A DNA stretch of 64,000 nt from an uncultured Pseudomonadota bacterium (GTDB taxonomy: Bacteria > Pseudomonadota > Alphaproteobacteria > Rs-D84): the NCBI GenBank assembly GCA_900320405.1, contig OOHM01000002.1, positions 236,461 through 300,460 on the forward strand, read 5' to 3'. Positions 5,045-12,279 of the stretch are shown here, one piece after another. Numbering within the stretch: the first letter of the stretch is position 1; each line of letters opens with the position of its first letter. The notes below the pieces were generated by a model. The model did no database searches and had not been told where the DNA came from. It saw only the letters and a program-made list of their open reading frames with translations. Made by a program: the position numbers and the translations under genes.

Positions 5045-5974
5045 TTATTGAACTTTTGTATTTATATATCTTTTTGCAAATTCAAATTCGCGTTTATTGT
5101 GCCATTTTTCGACTTCGTCCACCGATGCGCGGTCGAAATTGACCTCTGGACGGCCGAATTTCTTTTTCATATCTTCGCGTGCCGCAATCATTTCATTGTA
5201 CACGATGCCGCGCAGTATGCTGTATTCGCGTGCAGGTGCTTCAAAGTCCCATTTGTATACAATGTTTTTTAATGCCGTGCCGTACGCCGCCAATAAATGC
5301 GCATTCATAAAATCGGCCAATGGTTTGTTTTCGTGTAATCTGTATTCTTCCCGAATATCACCCGCATTCAGGTTTCCAAACAACCATTTTACCATTTCGC
5401 GATTTAATTCTGCATAGTGTTGGTTATGCGCGTGCAATTTGTTCATAATGCCGTTCAATTGTTTTTGATATTTTCTAACATCGCTGCGCAGACCGATGCG
5501 TTCGGCTTGGTTGGTTAATCTGTACAAATCAATTATTGATGTGTTTGGATTAGGGGTCATAAAATATTCTTGATGAAATATTGTTGGTTTGCTTTTACCG
5601 ATTTCTTTGACCAACGCCCACGCGGCAAATCTTGATACCTCGGCATCAAAGTTTTTATCATCAATGACGCGGAAGTGTCCAGATGCCAATTTTGACATAC
5701 GTTCCGGATTGTTTTCTTTTAGTTTATTTGGTGTGTATGCACGCACAGCGTTATCCAATGTTATGGTGCTTTTATACGGTTCACCGTTAAGTCCGTCAAC
5801 GGTATTTAACAATTCGGATAATTTCCAGAAATCATTTGCGCCCGCCGCAATTTGTTGATCTGGGGCCCAATCTGGCCATATAGATAATTCGCGCCAGATA
5901 CGGGTGGTATTACGCCCGTTATTCAATTTGTCGAAGGTTTCCATATATTTATTCGGAATGATAATGTTTTCCAT
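5045..5974 (-). CDS. Hypothetical protein (309 aa), probably co-transcribed with the upstream RHH gene
   Basis: Long ORF 20 bp downstream of the 5994-6224 gene. No family recognised. An R-x5-H (REEYRLH) motif is noted but not diagnostic. Confidence 0.5.
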   Translation of the reverse strand: MENIIIPNKYMETFDKLNNGRNTTRIWRELSIWPDWAPDQQIAAGANDFWKLSELLNTVDGLNGEPYKSTITLDNAVRAYTPNKLKENNPERMSKLASGHFRVIDDKNFDAEVSRFAAWALVKEIGKSKPTIFHQEYFMTPNPNTSIIDLYRLTNQAERIGLRSDVRKYQKQLNGIMNKLHAHNQHYAELNREMVKWLFGNLNAGDIREEYRLHENKPLADFMNAHLLAAYGTALKNIVYKWDFEAPAREYSILRGIVYNEMIAAREDMKKKFGRPEVNFDRASVDEVEKWHNKREFEFAKRYINTKVQ

Positions 5975-5993
5975 TTTTATTCCTTTTGGTTTT

Positions 5994-6224
5994 TTATTGT
6001 TTGTTGTTGTCTTCGGTATTCGCCAATGAAAACAGTACAGACGAAATTAGCGACTGGTACGGGACATGTTGCGTTGCCGCCAATTCTTTTAACCGGTCCA
6101 GTATCGGTCGGGGAATGCGCATATTGATAACCGCATCCGATTTATTGAATGCACGGTATGCAGCATATTCCCGCAGAAGGGATTCTATGTTCATAACAAA
6201 AAGTTGTTGCATAACGTTTGGCAT
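5994..6224 (-). CDS. BrnA/CopG-like ribbon-helix-helix antitoxin-family protein
   Basis: 'MRIPRPILDRLKELAATQHVPYQSLISSVL' matches the BrnA-antitoxin pattern (R-I-x-L...pYQtlI). 76 aa. No BrnT-like ORF upstream. Confidence 0.5.
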   Translation of the reverse strand: MPNVMQQLFVMNIESLLREYAAYRAFNKSDAVINMRIPRPILDRLKELAATQHVPYQSLISSVLFSLANTEDNNKQ

Positions 6225-6517: not shown

Positions 6518-7840
6518 ATGTTTAGAAAGGTTTTATATATGGCGGCGGCCATATTTGCGTTTTGTATGCCGGTGGCGCGTGCGGAATTAAAGGTTGATAT
6601 TGTTGCCGGTGCGGCGGACCCCATTTCGGTTGCAATTCAAAAGTTTGAGGTTGCCGGTGGCGCATCCACCGCCGATGCGGCGACGATACGCAGTGTGGTC
6701 GAGGCGGACCTGAAACGGACCGGATTATTTCACATTGTTAACCACGATGCGTTCCCGGAATTTGTAAAGATGGACGCGATGCCGGCGTTTAAGTCTTGGG
6801 CGGCCATCAAAGCGGCGGTGTTGGTGCAATCCAAATTGACCAAGAAATCGGATGGTAAATACCAATTAGATTTCTATGTTTGGGATGTTGCGGGCCAAGA
6901 ACAGATAGAAGCGCAAAGTCTGGCCGCATCAAAGAAGTCTGTACGGCGGTTGGGACATATTATGGCGGACGCCATTTATGAAAGATTAACGGGCGAGGTT
7001 GGATATTTCGATACCCAGATTGTATTTATTGCCGAAACTGGCCCGATTGACCGGCGCACTAAGCGTATGGCGATTATGGACCAAGACGGATATGGTATGC
7101 GGTATCTGTCGGATGCGAAAACATTTGTTATGTCGCCGCATTTTTCGCCGAATATGCAATCGATAGTGTTCTTGTCATACTATAACGACGACCCGATGGT
7201 TTGGATTTTGGATTTGAACACGGGTGCGCAACGCAGGTTAGGGCAATTTGGTGGTATGAACTTTGCGCCACGGTTTTCCCCAGATGGATCGCGTGTGGCG
7301 TTGTCTTTGGTGAAAAACGGGATTACACATATATATGAATACGATATAGAAAACAATTACTTGAAACAGTTGACGACGGGCAATTCGATTAACACCAGTC
7401 CGTCTTATTCCCCGGACGGTCGAAAAATCGCGTTCAATTCAGACCGCGGCGGGTCCCAGCAGATTTATGTCCTGGACGTGGAGTCCGGCGCGGTAGAACG
7501 CATTACATACGGGGCGGGGCGGTATGCGACCCCGGCGTGGTCACCGGACGGGCAATTTATTGCCTTTACGAAAATGGCGGATGACACATTCTATGTTGGG
7601 GTGATGGATCCGCGGGGCAAAAACGAAAAGATTTTGGCGGGCGGTTGGTTTATGGAGGCTCCGTCTTGGGCGCCGGGTTCGCGTCGTGTGGTATATTATG
7701 AAACCGAACGGACGGACGACAATATGGAACGCGTCAGTCACATTCGCAGTGTCGATATCACCGGGCAAAATATATATGACATAGATTTGCCGGACGGTGT
7801 GAATGGTTTGGAACCAACATGGTCGCCACGGTTGCCGTAA
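6518..7840 (+). CDS. tolB: Tol-Pal system beta-propeller protein TolB
   Basis: Signal peptide. Repeated 'SPDG..IAF' beta-propeller blades (SPSYSPDGRKIAFNSDRGGSQQIYVLDV; TPAWSPDGQFIAFT). 440 aa. Confidence 0.9.
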   Translation: MFRKVLYMAAAIFAFCMPVARAELKVDIVAGAADPISVAIQKFEVAGGASTADAATIRSVVEADLKRTGLFHIVNHDAFPEFVKMDAMPAFKSWAAIKAAVLVQSKLTKKSDGKYQLDFYVWDVAGQEQIEAQSLAASKKSVRRLGHIMADAIYERLTGEVGYFDTQIVFIAETGPIDRRTKRMAIMDQDGYGMRYLSDAKTFVMSPHFSPNMQSIVFLSYYNDDPMVWILDLNTGAQRRLGQFGGMNFAPRFSPDGSRVALSLVKNGITHIYEYDIENNYLKQLTTGNSINTSPSYSPDGRKIAFNSDRGGSQQIYVLDVESGAVERITYGAGRYATPAWSPDGQFIAFTKMADDTFYVGVMDPRGKNEKILAGGWFMEAPSWAPGSRRVVYYETERTDDNMERVSHIRSVDITGQNIYDIDLPDGVNGLEPTWSPRLP

Positions 7841-8250
7841 TGCAGAAATTTTTGGTTGCGTTTTTTGGAATTTTGTGTGCGGGCGTGGCGTTTGCCACGC
7901 CGGCGCGCGTAGACTATATTGTTGACGGCGATACTTTTGGTGCGACGGTTATGTTGGACGGGGATATTCGTGTTCCGGTGCGTGTTCGTATTCGGGACAT
8001 TGACACACCGGAAATTCACGGAAAATGTGCGGCGGAACGGGAAAGGGCGGCCGCGGCCCGGGCGCGTTTGGGGGAAATATTGCCACCCGGTTCGATTGTA
8101 GAATTAACGAACATCAAAGACGACAAATATTTGGGTCGCATTGATGCCAATGTTGCGGATGCGCGTGGCGCGGATGTTTCGGCGAATATGGTTCGTGCAG
8201 GATTGGGTCGCCCGTACAACGGCGGCAAAAGGGCAGGTTGGTGCCGGTAA
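7840..8250 (+). CDS. Secreted thermonuclease (SNase-like) family protein
   Basis: Signal peptide MQKFLVAFFGILCAGVAFA. 'DGDTF...VRVRIRDIDTPE' is an SNase motif. The ATG overlaps the tolB stop. Confidence 0.6.
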   Translation: MQKFLVAFFGILCAGVAFATPARVDYIVDGDTFGATVMLDGDIRVPVRVRIRDIDTPEIHGKCAAERERAAAARARLGEILPPGSIVELTNIKDDKYLGRIDANVADARGADVSANMVRAGLGRPYNGGKRAGWCR

Positions 8251-8422
8251 ATTTTTAATTATAGTTGTTTATAGTTATTTGCATAAGTTTTAATCTAATT
8301 ATAATTTTTCTTGATTTTTTATAGTTAGAACACATTACATATAACAAATTACTAACAGCGAATTTCATATTGCATTTCTCAGGATTTTTGTCATAATACC
8401 GCCAATAATAAAGGTTTTATGA

Positions 8423-9052
8423 ATGTGCAGAGTAGTTGATTTTTTGTCTGAAAAACGCTTATCAAAGTATGGTGATCCAAACGAGCCTCAAACGGTTGAA
8501 GAATATTTTTTTAATGTGGAACTTTGCGAAAGCCTGTATCCGCTGTTAAGTCAATTTGAAGTGGCGTTGCGCAACAAGGTAGATTCTGTATTTTCTAAAT
8601 ATATGGGCGAAAATTGGATATTCGAATTTGTTCGACAGGATGAAAAATTGACTGAAGAAAAAAATATAACTGATCGTAATGAATTGATAGATTCTTTGAC
8701 TTTTGCGTTTTGGTCGCGTTTGTTTATGGCGGAACGCAAAGAACAAATATGGAATCATTATCCAAAGGTTTTAACCGATATATTTTCAAAACGTCGCGAA
8801 TTTATAAGTAGGGAAAAAGTTTCGTTTGAAATAGATCAGATACGCCGTTGTCGCAATCGGTTTTCTCATAATGGTTCATTATTGATATGTCCCAAGAAAC
8901 AAATGCCATGTCATAAAATACATAATTTGTTGTTGCGTATGATGCGTGAGCTTGGTGCAGACCCCTTATTGGAACACATTAAACCCATGGACAGGTTTGA
9001 TGATGTATTTAAACGTGGCCTGAACCTGGGGTTTATTACATGCAAGATATAA
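8423..9052 (+). CDS. Abi_2 (AbiD/AbiF-like) HEPN-domain abortive-infection-family protein
   Basis: 'IRRCRNRFSHNGSL' gives an R-x4-H HEPN motif in an Abi_2-like context. Preceded by about 170 bp of very AT-rich DNA. The gene is AT-richer than its neighbours. Confidence 0.55.
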   Translation: MCRVVDFLSEKRLSKYGDPNEPQTVEEYFFNVELCESLYPLLSQFEVALRNKVDSVFSKYMGENWIFEFVRQDEKLTEEKNITDRNELIDSLTFAFWSRLFMAERKEQIWNHYPKVLTDIFSKRREFISREKVSFEIDQIRRCRNRFSHNGSLLICPKKQMPCHKIHNLLLRMMRELGADPLLEHIKPMDRFDDVFKRGLNLGFITCKI

Positions 9053-9189
9053 AAAAGAGGCAATCACCACACGAACACCCAAGGGCTGCATAGACATGCT
9101 AAACGTGGGATATAGCCTCTTTACCTAACGAACATTTTATCATAAAAGTATATCAAAAGTCAACAAAAAAGATAAAAACGGCAAAAAGC

Positions 9190-9229
9190 GTGAAAAAAAC
9201 ACCCCCGAAGGGTGTTCAAGGACACAAGC
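9190..9229. repeat. 40-bp direct repeat copy 1 (contains GC hairpin 'acacccccgaagggtgt')
   Basis: Near-identical to 9447-9487. Confidence 0.7.
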
Positions 9230-9275
9230 GGTTTTTTTTAGATGATGCACCGGTTGGTGCCGGTAATTAAATTCA

Positions 9276-9395
9276 AGAAAGATTGTCATTCCGGACTTGG
9301 TCCGGAACAGGGTCTATGAAATTGTGACGGATTATTCGAATTTATTCTGAAACCCGCGTCACAACTGTAAAGCCCTGTTGCGGCCTGCGCCGCAA
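9276..9395. repeat. About 120-bp palindromic (MITE/RPE-like) element
   Basis: The left half 'ttgtcattccgg...ccggaacagggtct...gtgacgg' is the reverse complement of the right half '...ccgcgtcac...agccctgttgcggcctgcgccgcaatgacaa'. Confidence 0.6.
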
Positions 9396-9446
9396 TGACA
9401 ATTCTTTTTTTGTATTAAATTTTGTAAAATAATATGAACTATCTGG

Positions 9447-9487
9447 GTGAAAAAAACACCCCCGAAGGGGTGTTCAAGGACACAAGC
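9447..9487 (-). terminator. Direct repeat copy 2, acting as a rho-independent terminator for the 9503-10579 gene
   Basis: On the minus strand it reads 'acacccc ttcg ggggtgt' plus T7, immediately 3' of the stop at 9503. Confidence 0.6.
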
Positions 9488-9502: not shown

Positions 9503-10579
9503 TTAGTCGCCCTCTACCTGAGCAATACGTTTCCAAACTGGCTTGCCATCTACATCACTGGTGACCAACGCACACGGATGCGATGCATCGCAATAGTCGT
9601 CAGGATTGTCAGTTGAGTTTGGCATCTCCGGGATTACGTTACCACCGGTTTGCGCTTGAACATATTCATAAACTGCGGCACCGGTTGTCAAACCTGTATC
9701 GTTAGATGTAACATCTGTTCCGGCATTTGTTATATCAGTAACAGCAATTTCAACATTATTACCATTTGTGGTTATGCTGACGTGATCCGTGCCGGTTGCC
9801 GTTTTCCATGTACCACCCGCCATACCGATTTGATAATCAGCAGCAGAGGTTTTTGGTTGATATGTATTTCCAAGGTCAAGGTTGGTAATTTGACCGGTTA
9901 CGTAATCTGCGACTTGATCACCGCTTACCAAACCTGCTTCATCGTCGGCAACGCCGTTTGTGGCAAGGCCTGCACCGGCAGCGGCACCTAAGTTAACCGT
10001 TTTGTCGCTGGTATCGATAGTCACAGGAGTGCCATTAACCTTAACGCCTTTAAGGGTTACGTATTGATTAACAGCGTTTTCCGACGGTGCTTTATCCGTT
10101 GCTGTACCTACCTGGTTTGAAATAAAATTCGTAACTTGTGATGCGTTGGCAATTGCCTGTTTGATAACACCTTCGGTAACAAGATTCGAGGATTCGCTGT
10201 TCAATCCGTTTGCTGGAAGAGCAGTTGTCATCTTAGTTGAATCAAGGTTAAGTATAGCCTCGCCATTGGTGCCTGCGGTGACATCAACATAACCGTTTGT
10301 TGCCTCTGTAACGGCACTGGTCATAGCCGCCCAAGAGCCGCCTTTGCCAACTTTATAGTCTGTAGAGTCTTGAATAGCCTGTTTCTGTGCCAATGCGTCG
10401 CTTACAGCGGCCCCAGAAGGTGCTTTATCGCTATCCCCTGACGAAACGATACCCGCGATTTTTGCATCAACGTATGATTTAGATGTAACTGTGTTATCTG
10501 GATCAGCCAAAGCCGCGTTTGCAGACAAGATTGCCGCCGCAAAGCCCACGAACACCAGTCCACGTACTTTAAATTTCAT
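9503..10579 (-). CDS. Secreted Thr/Gly-rich tail-fibre/adhesin-like protein, member of the 'VTSKxYVD' family
   Basis: Start at MKFKVRGLVFVGFAAAILSANAALA (signal peptide), then 'DPDNTVTSKSYVDAKIAG'. C-terminal 'YCDASHPCALV'. Paralogous to 23168, 29351 and 29775. Confidence 0.6.
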   Translation of the reverse strand: MKFKVRGLVFVGFAAAILSANAALADPDNTVTSKSYVDAKIAGIVSSGDSDKAPSGAAVSDALAQKQAIQDSTDYKVGKGGSWAAMTSAVTEATNGYVDVTAGTNGEAILNLDSTKMTTALPANGLNSESSNLVTEGVIKQAIANASQVTNFISNQVGTATDKAPSENAVNQYVTLKGVKVNGTPVTIDTSDKTVNLGAAAGAGLATNGVADDEAGLVSGDQVADYVTGQITNLDLGNTYQPKTSAADYQIGMAGGTWKTATGTDHVSITTNGNNVEIAVTDITNAGTDVTSNDTGLTTGAAVYEYVQAQTGGNVIPEMPNSTDNPDDYCDASHPCALVTSDVDGKPVWKRIAQVEGD

Positions 10580-10719
10580 TGTTTGTTCCTTTTGCTTGTT
10601 TGTTTGTTGTTGTCTTGCGACGGGTGCATACAACAATTGTTTGTATAAATCCGTTGCATTCTTTCTTGTGATTGCCGCCTTGCATTATCCCCCTTTGATT
10701 TTGCAAAGCGGCTATCTAA

Positions 10720-10945: not shown

Positions 10946-12208
10946 CTATGGTTCGTCCGGATTTGTACCGCCACCCGCGTTCGGATCATCATCCGCCGTG
11001 ATGACGCGGAACCATAACTGATTTCCGTCTTCGTCCACAGACATTACGTATTGACCTTCGCCCGGACGGTTTTCATCCCACCATTCTTTCCATCCTTCGA
11101 CCCATGTTAATGTGCCCGCGATGTCCGTTGCCAATTTCGCACGTTCAACCGCGCCATCGTTAATGAACGGTGCCGATACGGTATCTTCGTATGCCAAATC
11201 ACCCAGGTTATCCAAATCGGTCGTGGTTGCGAATTCTACGTCGGACGGAACAACGATGCCGTCTGCGCCAACAACCAATGCCTTGCCCGCGTTATCGGTG
11301 CCTTGGTCTTTGTCAACCTTTTTATCCAAATCGTCTGCGGTCACAATGGTGTTGTTAATGTTTTCAATTTGTTGGTCAATTTCCGTCTTTGAATAGAAAT
11401 CACCCGTTGGCGCCAAAATTCCGTCTTCGCCGACAACCAATGCCTTGCCTGCGTTATCGGTGCCTTGGTCTTTGTCAACCTTTTTATCCAATTCCGCCAG
11501 AATTTCAATGCGCAAGTTATTAATGCGTTGATTCAATGTTTCGGTCAATCCCGAAAAATCCAATTTATCACTGATTTCATCCCACGTAATCAGTATGTTC
11601 CATTCTTCGTCGCCGACATAGCGCCAGAGCAGTCCTTCGTCATTTGTGCCCATTTCAACCTCGCGACCGTCGGTGCCGTCTTCTAATCCCAAATCTTCTT
11701 TGATTTTTTCGATATCTAATATCAGTTCATCACCTTCAATTGTGATATAGGTGGAATCTTGCAATACATTCTGTTTGTTGGTTTCCAAAGATATAACCTC
11801 GGTTTCCAGACGTTCAACGCGTTCGGTCAAATCGACACCAACACCGCCGGATGAACTTATTGATTTTGGCGCACCAATGTATTTACCAATGGACAGACGC
11901 GGAGATGACGCCACACGGCCAACCGTCGCCGTGCCCGCAGATACAGAACCGCCCGTTGTTGTTGCCGTTGGTGTTGTCGTTGCCGCAGAATTTAATGCGG
12001 TATTCGATATGGATGTCATCGGGCGAACATATCCGCCCGTCGCACGCAACGAACCTGCACGCGATGCCGCCGTGGCCGCCGCCGCAGATTCATATGTACC
12101 CGTGCCACCAATCGTGCGTACCGTCGGTGCCGCAAATGCCGCGGATGTCGCCACAACGCACAATATTGATACCAATGATGTTTTTATTCCCTCTTTCATC
12201 TCTCCCAT
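10946..12208 (-). CDS. Secreted Thr/Ala-rich repeat protein, phage tail-fibre-like
   Basis: Signal peptide MKEGIKTSLVSILCVVATSAAFA. Two 54-aa tandem repeats 'DKKVDKDQGTDNAGKALVVG[EA]DGI', from a DNA repeat at 11251-11329 and 11413-11491. Coiled-coil segment and Trp-rich C-terminus. Confidence 0.55.
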   Translation of the reverse strand: MGEMKEGIKTSLVSILCVVATSAAFAAPTVRTIGGTGTYESAAAATAASRAGSLRATGGYVRPMTSISNTALNSAATTTPTATTTGGSVSAGTATVGRVASSPRLSIGKYIGAPKSISSSGGVGVDLTERVERLETEVISLETNKQNVLQDSTYITIEGDELILDIEKIKEDLGLEDGTDGREVEMGTNDEGLLWRYVGDEEWNILITWDEISDKLDFSGLTETLNQRINNLRIEILAELDKKVDKDQGTDNAGKALVVGEDGILAPTGDFYSKTEIDQQIENINNTIVTADDLDKKVDKDQGTDNAGKALVVGADGIVVPSDVEFATTTDLDNLGDLAYEDTVSAPFINDGAVERAKLATDIAGTLTWVEGWKEWWDENRPGEGQYVMSVDEDGNQLWFRVITADDDPNAGGGTNPDEP

Positions 12209-12279
12209 CCCTATGTGGTGTATTATATCACATTTTTGCCTATACACAAAATCCTTTTTTCAAATTTTTTTGTGCTTTG

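Follow-up and report, generated by a model that had tools for sequence, protein, structure and literature searches.

A putative mobile cassette pairing an AbiF-like HEPN protein with a convergent structured small RNA in an uncultured alphaproteobacterium

The window analysed here is a stretch of 64,000 nucleotides (nt) of contig OOHM01000002.1 (positions 236,461 to 300,460 of the forward strand; assembly GCA_900320405.1) from an uncultured gut alphaproteobacterium of the Rs-D84 lineage with a reduced genome. Behind a tolB-nuclease gene pair, it carries an AT-rich islet that encodes a HEPN protein of 209 amino acids (aa) and, convergent with it, a structured small RNA. As judged from its sequence, the islet is a self-contained mobile cassette of ~790 bp (~8370-9163) made up of two convergent transcription units. 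By analogy with characterized systems, the cassette is probably an AbiF-like type III toxin-antitoxin or abortive-infection module with a different RNA partner and layout. The elements of the cassette are as follows.

8370..8397, + strand: predicted sigma-70 promoter of the HEPN gene, TTGCAT (-35), 16-nt spacer, TG-extended CATAAT (-10)
8423..9052, + strand: mini-AbiF-like HEPN open reading frame (ORF), candidate RNase toxin, 209 aa, ATG start
8843..8869, + strand: codons of R141-x2-R144-N145-x3-H149, the HEPN R-phi-x3-H catalytic motif, judged by invariance in alignments A1 and A8
9045..9128, - strand: gene of a structured small RNA (~80 nt), a candidate RNA antitoxin (covariance model R1, 105 bits, E ~1e-24)
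9134..9163, - strand: small-RNA promoter predicted by promoter scan, TTGACT (-35, 9163-9158), 18-nt spacer, TG-extended TAAAAT (-10, ending at 9134)

The 209-aa protein contains the motif IRRCRNRFSH. The catalytic motif of HEPN and AbiD/F proteins is defined as R-phi-x3-H, with phi being N, H or D, and lies on a helix (PMC12373285); the window protein displays it as R144-N145-R-F-S-H149. The pattern R.{4}H by itself is weak, and its weight rests on conservation across the family: 29 close relatives (alignment A1) share R141, R144, N145 and H149 without exception, and likewise E46, R50 and N51 of the first long helix, and R144, N145 and H149 are still invariant after the addition of 40 distant relatives (alignment A8, 49 sequences). 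The R-x4-H motif on which the original prediction was built is thus present and conserved.

The window protein by itself is hard to place. It scores 16.9 bits against Pfam Abi_2 (PF07751; E=0.0079, residues 22-96 only), under the gathering cut-off of 25.6, and 17.5 bits against Pfam HEPN_Swt1 (E=0.0053), under the cut-off of 27.5. Searches with the single protein returned no match in NCBIfam or among PDB sequences and nothing useful in PHROGs, and BLASTP against phiC2 AbiF gave no significant match. These weak single-protein searches are rescued by family profiles and structure comparison. The best match in the defence library is the PADLOC model PD-T4-5 (PDLC04038; E=1.1e-14), with an alignment that is partial and covers two stretches of the 309-position profile, the best one corresponding to residues 3-69. 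Pfam Abi_2 is matched at E<=0.01 by 38 of the 49 aligned family members (best 4.8e-12), indicating that the window protein belongs to a branch that has diverged and become shorter. The close family has 32 homologues, almost all 209 aa long, and its profile retrieves 5085 cluster representatives at E<=1e-3, mostly of 215-240 aa, and distant homologues on plasmids and phages carry the labels 'Abi family protein' or 'AbiD/AbiF-like'. An AF2 model computed from alignment A1 is all-helical (pLDDT 92.8, pTM 0.88), and Foldseek aligns this predicted structure with solved AbiF at probability 1.0 and TM 0.55, consistent with the HEPN/AbiD-F fold. Sequence family and model together suggest a shortened, divergent AbiF-like HEPN protein. 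The Abi_2/HEPN-like identity first proposed is therefore formally borderline by the protein's own profile scores and gains support from the PD-T4-5 match and from its relatives; as a description of the locus it is essentially right but incomplete, because the ORF is paired with a convergent structured small RNA.

DNA homology among cassettes in unrelated contexts continues for ~115 nt beyond the HEPN stop codon. The small-RNA stretch is 71-94% identical to the window, compared with 61-76% for the ORF and 49-57% for its third codon positions; this higher conservation after the stop codon is evidence for an RNA gene. The predicted RNA folds into a three-way junction in which two hairpins are surrounded by a closing stem of 7 bp, a further 2 bp and a stem of 6 bp, and the U-tract that follows the closing stem abuts or overlaps the HEPN stop codon. 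RNAalifold yields -21.9 kcal/mol for the minus strand versus -16.1 kcal/mol for the plus strand, and the minus strand was assigned because its G-U pairs are A-C mismatches on the plus strand. When 13 sequences are aligned with MAFFT, the paired fraction of cells is 97.9%, compared with ~40-63% after sliding of the partners, and six pairs show compensatory changes. With five more divergent copies added by the covariance model, which leans towards structure, 15 of 22 base pairs show compensatory changes among 18 sequences and 97.7% of cells pair, against ~40-60% when slid. Unpaired nucleotides, including the conserved GGUGAUUG and UAUAUCC, are almost invariant; variation is limited to compensatory stem changes and small loops, and there is no variable spacer-like segment.

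Both units have conserved promoter-like elements. Of 16 copies of the small RNA, 15 are preceded by a TTGAC box and the remaining one by TTGAT, always with the same spacing, and a TGnTAnAAT -10 element is found in most copies. The arrangement TTGnAn-16/17-TGnCATAAT, located ~25-55 nt 5' of the HEPN ATG, recurs with unchanged spacing to the start codon in most loci across different contexts, and these conserved elements point to transcription of the HEPN gene from this promoter.

The small RNA is distinct from the abiF motif (RF03085) and matches no Rfam family. At permissive thresholds on both strands, Rfam returned chance-level matches only (BTnc201 at E=0.65 and a plastid psbA 3' untranslated region (UTR) motif), and RF03085 gave zero matches at E<=10 on either strand. 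In a positive control run with this tool, RF03085 was recovered at 37.6 bits in front of phiC2 abiF; the R1 model gave no match at the phiC2 abiF locus. The conserved sequence thus appears to specify a previously undescribed structured RNA. A small protein antitoxin 3' of the HEPN gene was also considered and rejected: from the stop codon to 9300 there are only ORFs of 21-49 aa, and none of them falls within a conserved stretch. The locus does not have the HEPN-MNT arrangement either, as the HEPN gene is neighboured by a thermonuclease gene and a surface-protein gene and no MNT nucleotidyltransferase gene adjoins it. A scan of the region for tRNA and tmRNA found zero.

The RNA is tightly linked to the HEPN gene. 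It lies behind every examined homologue of 53-94% identity and in all 16 examined loci with homologues at least 36% identical, the P0027 lineage excepted. The R1 model finds a single copy in the window, at 9045-9128 (-). Two tandem copies occur in locus L012 (3737-3928), next to a 36%-identical homologue, and three in L108 (3658-3986) and L109, next to the distant homologue P0153. In the arrays of L012 and L108, promoter-like elements accompany every single copy, and copies inside one array have diverged from each other through compensatory stem changes. A metagenome-wide scan for the conserved core of the RNA produced three true and four chance matches, the true ones only beside the gene or its remnant, and a scan of viral contigs for the small-RNA sequence produced no match. 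In L097, the HEPN gene is truncated to its last ~38 codons while the small RNA is intact. A conserved structured RNA is thus stably linked to the gene, as in AbiF-type systems: it moves with the gene, is present in one to three copies and shows covariation. The anatomy of the gene and RNA, their conservation, covariation and co-mobility, and the fold are directly supported by these data. Because unpaired bases are selected, the fold is kept by compensation, tandem copies resemble a dosage arrangement and the RNA is retained beside a truncated toxin gene, the RNA is likely to be recognized by a protein.

The HEPN gene is accessory and mobile, in line with the horizontal acquisition suggested by the original prediction. 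The protein is found in 32 clusters only, compared with 1220 matches (E<=1e-10) for the adjoining nuclease. Outside the species itself, only two close relatives retain the tolB-nuclease context; in relatives with 57-78% identity, the gene occupies other sites, among them the tail modules of P2-like prophages and a defence island. Contexts of the gene elsewhere include the following.

L099: in a P2-like prophage, with gpU on one side and tail X/gpD on the other
L090: preceded by the gene of a PLD-like nuclease and adjacent to P2-like tail genes
L087: preceded by the gene of a KAP NTPase (962 aa) and close to a serine recombinase gene
L102 and L103: adjoining thymidine kinase or CorA genes
L108 (P0153, the more distant homologue): flanked by genes for an MmeI-like methyltransferase and a resolvase

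A comparison of these genomes shows that the position following the nuclease gene is a cargo-swapping hotspot. In L106 it is empty, with the nuclease stop codon followed by ~55 nt and then the terminator. L104 (5416-6106) carries, instead of the HEPN cassette, a zeta-toxin-like module consisting of a zeta-toxin/AAA_33-like P-loop gene and a 47-aa gene, and in L097 (3285-3976) this module, with a P-loop protein of 183 aa, replaces the first ~170 HEPN codons. In L011 (6761-7388), the 94%-identical orthologue has a +1 frameshift (A8 versus A7 at window ~8663-8669, near codon 81), which may reflect a pseudogene, phase variation or an assembly error. The frameshifted gene in L011, the truncated gene with retained RNA in L097 and the prophage and recombinase contexts suggest toxin-antitoxin-like behaviour.

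Identical or near-identical loci were found in rumen and gut metagenomes. The labels of species representatives that bear a homologue are Candidatus Enterousia, 'uncultured Rickettsiales' and 'Alphaproteobacteria bacterium', and one of these representatives is a circular 0.96-Mb metagenome-assembled genome. A recent survey found the order Rickettsiales to be without abiF/Abi_2 genes (PMC12373285). Some of the homologue-bearing genomes were deposited as 'uncultured Rickettsiales bacterium' or 'Rickettsiales bacterium', and the NCBI taxonomy places Enterousia within Alphaproteobacteria incertae sedis.

The AT-rich islet with a 209-aa ORF described earlier after the tolB-nuclease pair is real: the gap between the nuclease gene and the ORF (8251-8422) is 172 bp long with 21.5% GC, and the ORF has 36.2% GC overall and 33.5% at third codon positions (GC3), the lowest among the 45 window ORFs of at least 200 aa (mean 45.5%, sd 2.8; GC3 mean 45.5%, sd 4.8), in agreement with the AT-rich codon usage noted at the time. 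Conservation of the spacer 8251-8369 is confined to the species itself and L011, and homology with cassettes elsewhere starts at ~8363-8441. The right end at 9052 given by the original prediction was too short: with the small RNA gene at 9045-9128 (-) and its promoter at 9134-9163, the functional unit runs to ~9163.

AbiF proteins are type III toxins that are neutralized by cognate non-coding RNAs (ncRNAs) through direct binding (PMC12373285, PMC12737573, PMC13064643). The Clostridioides difficile protein AbiFCd is toxic through its R/H site, and its ncRNA, RCd22, neutralizes it in cis and in trans by direct binding; the R/H pair is needed for toxicity in both AbiFCd and PbAbiF (PMC12373285). 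In the solved structure of PbAbiF, two ncRNAs block the active site of a protein dimer (PMC12737573). RCd22 consists of two abiF motifs located upstream of abiF on the same strand (PMC12373285), and a 2026 review also puts the ncRNA upstream of abiF (PMC13064643).

The window cassette shares with AbiF/AbiFr and AbiFCd/RCd22 (8VZ6, the structure of PbAbiF with its ncRNA; AbiF of C. difficile phi027 and phiC2) an Abi_2/AbiD/F-lineage HEPN protein with an R-N-x3-H site, a small structured RNA beside the gene, sometimes in more than one copy (compare the two motifs of RCd22), and an occurrence in prophages and defence islands. It differs in several respects. The protein is ~30% shorter, with 209 aa versus 287 in phiC2 AbiF and 297 residues in the 8VZ6 chain. 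The RNA is downstream, convergent and provided with its own promoter, whereas the AbiF ncRNA is upstream, on the same strand and co-transcribed. Finally, the RNA is a three-way junction of ~80 nt, whereas the AbiF RNA is a hairpin of 36-37 nt. By this analogy, the module looks like an AbiF/ncRNA system in its working but like an architectural variant rather than a plain member. The chances are about even that an AbiF-like subclade of ~210-220 aa exchanged the abiF-motif RNA for an unrelated opposite-strand three-way-junction RNA of ~80 nt with its own promoter and one to three copies, giving a new RNA family and a hybrid type I/III architecture.

Other type III systems (ToxIN, AbiQ, CptIN, TenpIN) likewise combine an RNase toxin protein with a tandem RNA antitoxin, here in one to three copies, but the toxin fold is unrelated (ToxN-like versus HEPN). 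The repeats of the window family are units of ~110-130 bp on the opposite strand with their own promoters, whereas those of ToxIN-type systems are 34-36 nt long, upstream and processed by the toxin from a single transcript.

As an AbiF-like type III module, the cassette would work in the following way. The HEPN protein, made from its own promoter, would by homology be a dimeric RNase toxin using the R144-N145-x3-H149 site. The ~80-nt RNA, transcribed opposite to the gene from a strong promoter of its own as far as the toxin stop codon, would be abundant and would bind the HEPN dimer, blocking its active site. If RNA synthesis stopped or was outpaced by decay, as in phage host shut-off or element loss, HEPN would be set free and would cleave cellular and/or phage RNA, leading to growth arrest that would act as abortive infection or addiction. 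Convergent transcription would probably add a second, type I-like layer through antisense or collision control of the toxin mRNA. The RNase activity, the toxicity, the RNA-protein binding, the trigger and the role in phage defence we infer from homologues and context; for phage defence, this context consists of moron positions in prophages and of neighbours associated with defence and mobility.

Several observations weigh against this AbiF-like reading. No RF03085 RNA lies upstream on the same strand, and both position and strand of the RNA are opposite to those of known AbiF ncRNAs. The window protein scores below the Pfam Abi_2 cut-off, and ~90 residues of the 8VZ6 chain (297 residues) and of phiC2 AbiF (287 aa) are missing from it; the RNA-binding surface of the shortened protein may differ. 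The fold of the single RNA sequence beats shuffled sequences only modestly (z = -1.77), and a multi-branch structure with a long-range closing stem is unusual for an intrinsic terminator. The P0027 lineage (48% identity; L088/L089) has an intact motif and no detectable RNA within 6 kb, so that the RNA is either not universally required or has been replaced there; this lineage may use a different antidote. In ~75 loci with 23-35%-identical homologues, no RNA was found with the R1 model or the broadened R2 model.

The surroundings of these RNA-free homologues were inspected as well. The P0027 gene (L088/L089, 6001-6624) has a gene for a 1408-aa unknown protein as its 5' neighbour and a convergent HNH_5 gene 7 nt downstream. 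P0164 leaves no room for an RNA copy. RF03085 was sought in 19 of the distant-homologue loci and not found, and the ~220-aa Abi_2 family has no common downstream non-coding element. A sequence that Dehalococcoidia share downstream looks like a conserved protein-coding gene.

A different explanation is pure type I-like control, in which the RNA acts only by pairing with the 3' end of the HEPN mRNA or by transcriptional collision, which would trigger degradation or termination, and forms no complex with the protein. In the type I systems txpA/RatA and bsrG/SR4, convergent antisense RNAs overlap the 3' ends of the toxin genes, and the window cassette resembles them: its small RNA gene is convergent, has a strong promoter of its own and meets the toxin gene 3' end to 3' end. 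The U-tract of the window RNA abuts the stop codon. No plus-strand terminator was found between the HEPN stop codon and the RNA gene, so that a read-through HEPN mRNA would have a 3' end antisense, and fully complementary, to the small RNA. However, the toxin candidate is a 209-aa soluble helical HEPN enzyme and not the small hydrophobic or membrane peptide typical of type I toxins. Cis-antisense pairing requires no selection on structure or unpaired bases, yet here the unpaired bases are near-invariant, the fold is compensated and the RNA is more conserved than the ORF. Arrays of two or three independently promoted copies also fit the dosage of a binding partner better, there is no consistent complementarity to the HEPN 5' UTR or ribosome-binding site, and the homologous AbiF toxins are neutralized through direct RNA binding (PMC12373285). 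Type I-like control as the sole mode of action is thus unlikely. Trans-antisense pairing with the HEPN 5' UTR or ribosome-binding site was tried as a separate candidate and rejected, no consistent site rising above shuffles.

It is very doubtful that the HEPN protein is a stand-alone, single-gene Abi protein, the reading of the original prediction, followed by a terminator, a 3'-UTR stability element or an unrelated hitch-hiking small RNA. Many Abi_2 entries are handled as single-gene systems, among them PD-T4-5, an anti-T4 Abi_2-type protein of E. coli that resembles the window protein as its best defence-library match and differs in that the profile aligns only in part, and the P0027 lineage and the distant ~220-aa relatives have no RNA. 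Against this stand a conserved promoter on the opposite strand, G-U pairs that place the fold on the minus strand, a three-way junction instead of a simple hairpin, one to three copies with a promoter each, and the RNA kept in L097 after truncation of the toxin.

It is highly improbable that the RNA, instead of inhibiting the HEPN RNase, activates or guides it as a sensor or guide-like cofactor in a ribonucleoprotein resembling a Cas13 precursor. AbiF has been proposed as the evolutionary ancestor of Cas13 and its ncRNA as the precursor of the CRISPR RNA (PMC12737573), and Cas13 HEPN domains are the next-best structural matches of the predicted model after PbAbiF. However, the window RNA has neither a variable spacer-like segment nor a repeat-spacer arrangement, and the orphan RNA beside the truncated toxin gene in L097 suits an antidote better. 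That the 3' element is a DNA-level recombination or mobility site folding as single-stranded DNA (compare integron attC and IS200/IS605 ends), which would account for the movement of the cassette, is extremely unlikely: the many unrelated contexts with sharp homology boundaries, the strand-specific wobble, which as G-T would also fit folded single-stranded DNA, and a 15-bp direct repeat flanking the islet would agree with it, but an extended sigma-70 promoter stands at a fixed distance with a U-tract after the fold, each tandem copy has its own promoter, the left end of the cassette has no matching element and no recombinase is consistently linked.

The genes and repeats bordering the cassette in the window are listed below; the repeats correspond to the downstream repeat cluster that the original prediction had placed next to the ORF.

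6518-7840: TolB gene (TolB_N 1.5e-22, PD40 2.2e-26)
7819-8250: thermonuclease gene with signal peptide (SNase 21.6 bits, cut-off 21)
8251..8369, strand-less: very AT-rich spacer from the nuclease stop codon to the cassette's own promoter
9193..9229, - strand: terminator-like hairpin of 37 nt, repeat D1 copy 1, right edge of the islet
9451-9487: hairpin D1 copy 2, terminating the surface-protein gene
9252..9266, + strand: second copy of the 15-bp direct repeat GGTTGGTGCCGGTAA, whose first copy (8236-8250) forms the 3' end of the nuclease gene
9275-9294 and 9390-9409: 20-nt inverted repeats flanking the ~130-bp segment 9275-9409

L106, L097 and L011 have a single copy of the D1 hairpin. A perfect 15-bp repeat such as GGTTGGTGCCGGTAA is expected 0.02 times by chance in the window. 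It may have arisen by target duplication or have been left behind by an insertion or recombination event. As regards a clean target-site duplication, relatives differ at the nuclease stop codon and offer no clean empty-site junction, and the second copy falls inside the variable repeat unit, just past the islet terminator. The segment 9275-9409, between the two terminator copies, is inverted in strains L002, L003 and L005 of the same species (about 8830-9010 in these loci), and in L005 the unit of terminator plus segment is tandemly amplified. This segment could be an invertible element or a miniature inverted-repeat transposable element. It is not an obvious promoter switch, because it lies 3' of the variable surface-protein gene.

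Two large surface-type proteins rich in Ala, Thr and Gly, without Pfam match, are encoded at 9503-10636 (-) and 10946-12247 (-). Compared with L002 and L003, the protein encoded at 9503-10636 is ~82% identical over residues 1-246 and 57% identical over the C-terminal ~70 residues, with flanks ~100% identical. On this sequence pattern, they are candidate antigenically variable surface proteins.

On the other side of the tolB gene, at 5045-6224 (-), a 309-aa gene matches DinD (NCBIfam, 1.2e-13), a model of type I specificity subunits and the PADLOC candidate PDC-S13 (9e-16), and adjoins a 76-aa CopG/BrnA-like antitoxin gene. In L011 and L097, the 76-aa gene is 98.7% identical and the 309-aa gene only 34-37% identical. 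These identities suggest a hypervariable or swapped partner and a second candidate toxin or defence module.

AbiF-type HEPN toxins with neutralization by ncRNA were characterized only in 2025, and to our knowledge all described cases have an upstream, same-strand abiF-motif RNA. The cassette described here keeps the AbiF protein fold in a smaller protein and departs from these cases in RNA structure, strand, promoter and copy number. If the RNA is an antitoxin, it would widen the range of RNA antitoxins for HEPN toxins and constitute a new Rfam family with a clear protein partner. If the RNA was indeed swapped, protein-RNA partnerships along the line from AbiF to Cas13 would have been re-invented more than once, and the complex would be among the smallest HEPN ribonucleoproteins. 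The cassette is thus of relevance to specialists of toxin-antitoxin systems, phage defence and Cas13 evolution, and offers a compact candidate for an RNA-controlled RNase for mechanistic and engineering work. For the ~1-Mb gut and rumen alphaproteobacteria related to Candidatus Enterousia, it points to mobile toxin or defence cargo and to a hotspot for such cargo behind the tolB-nuclease pair.

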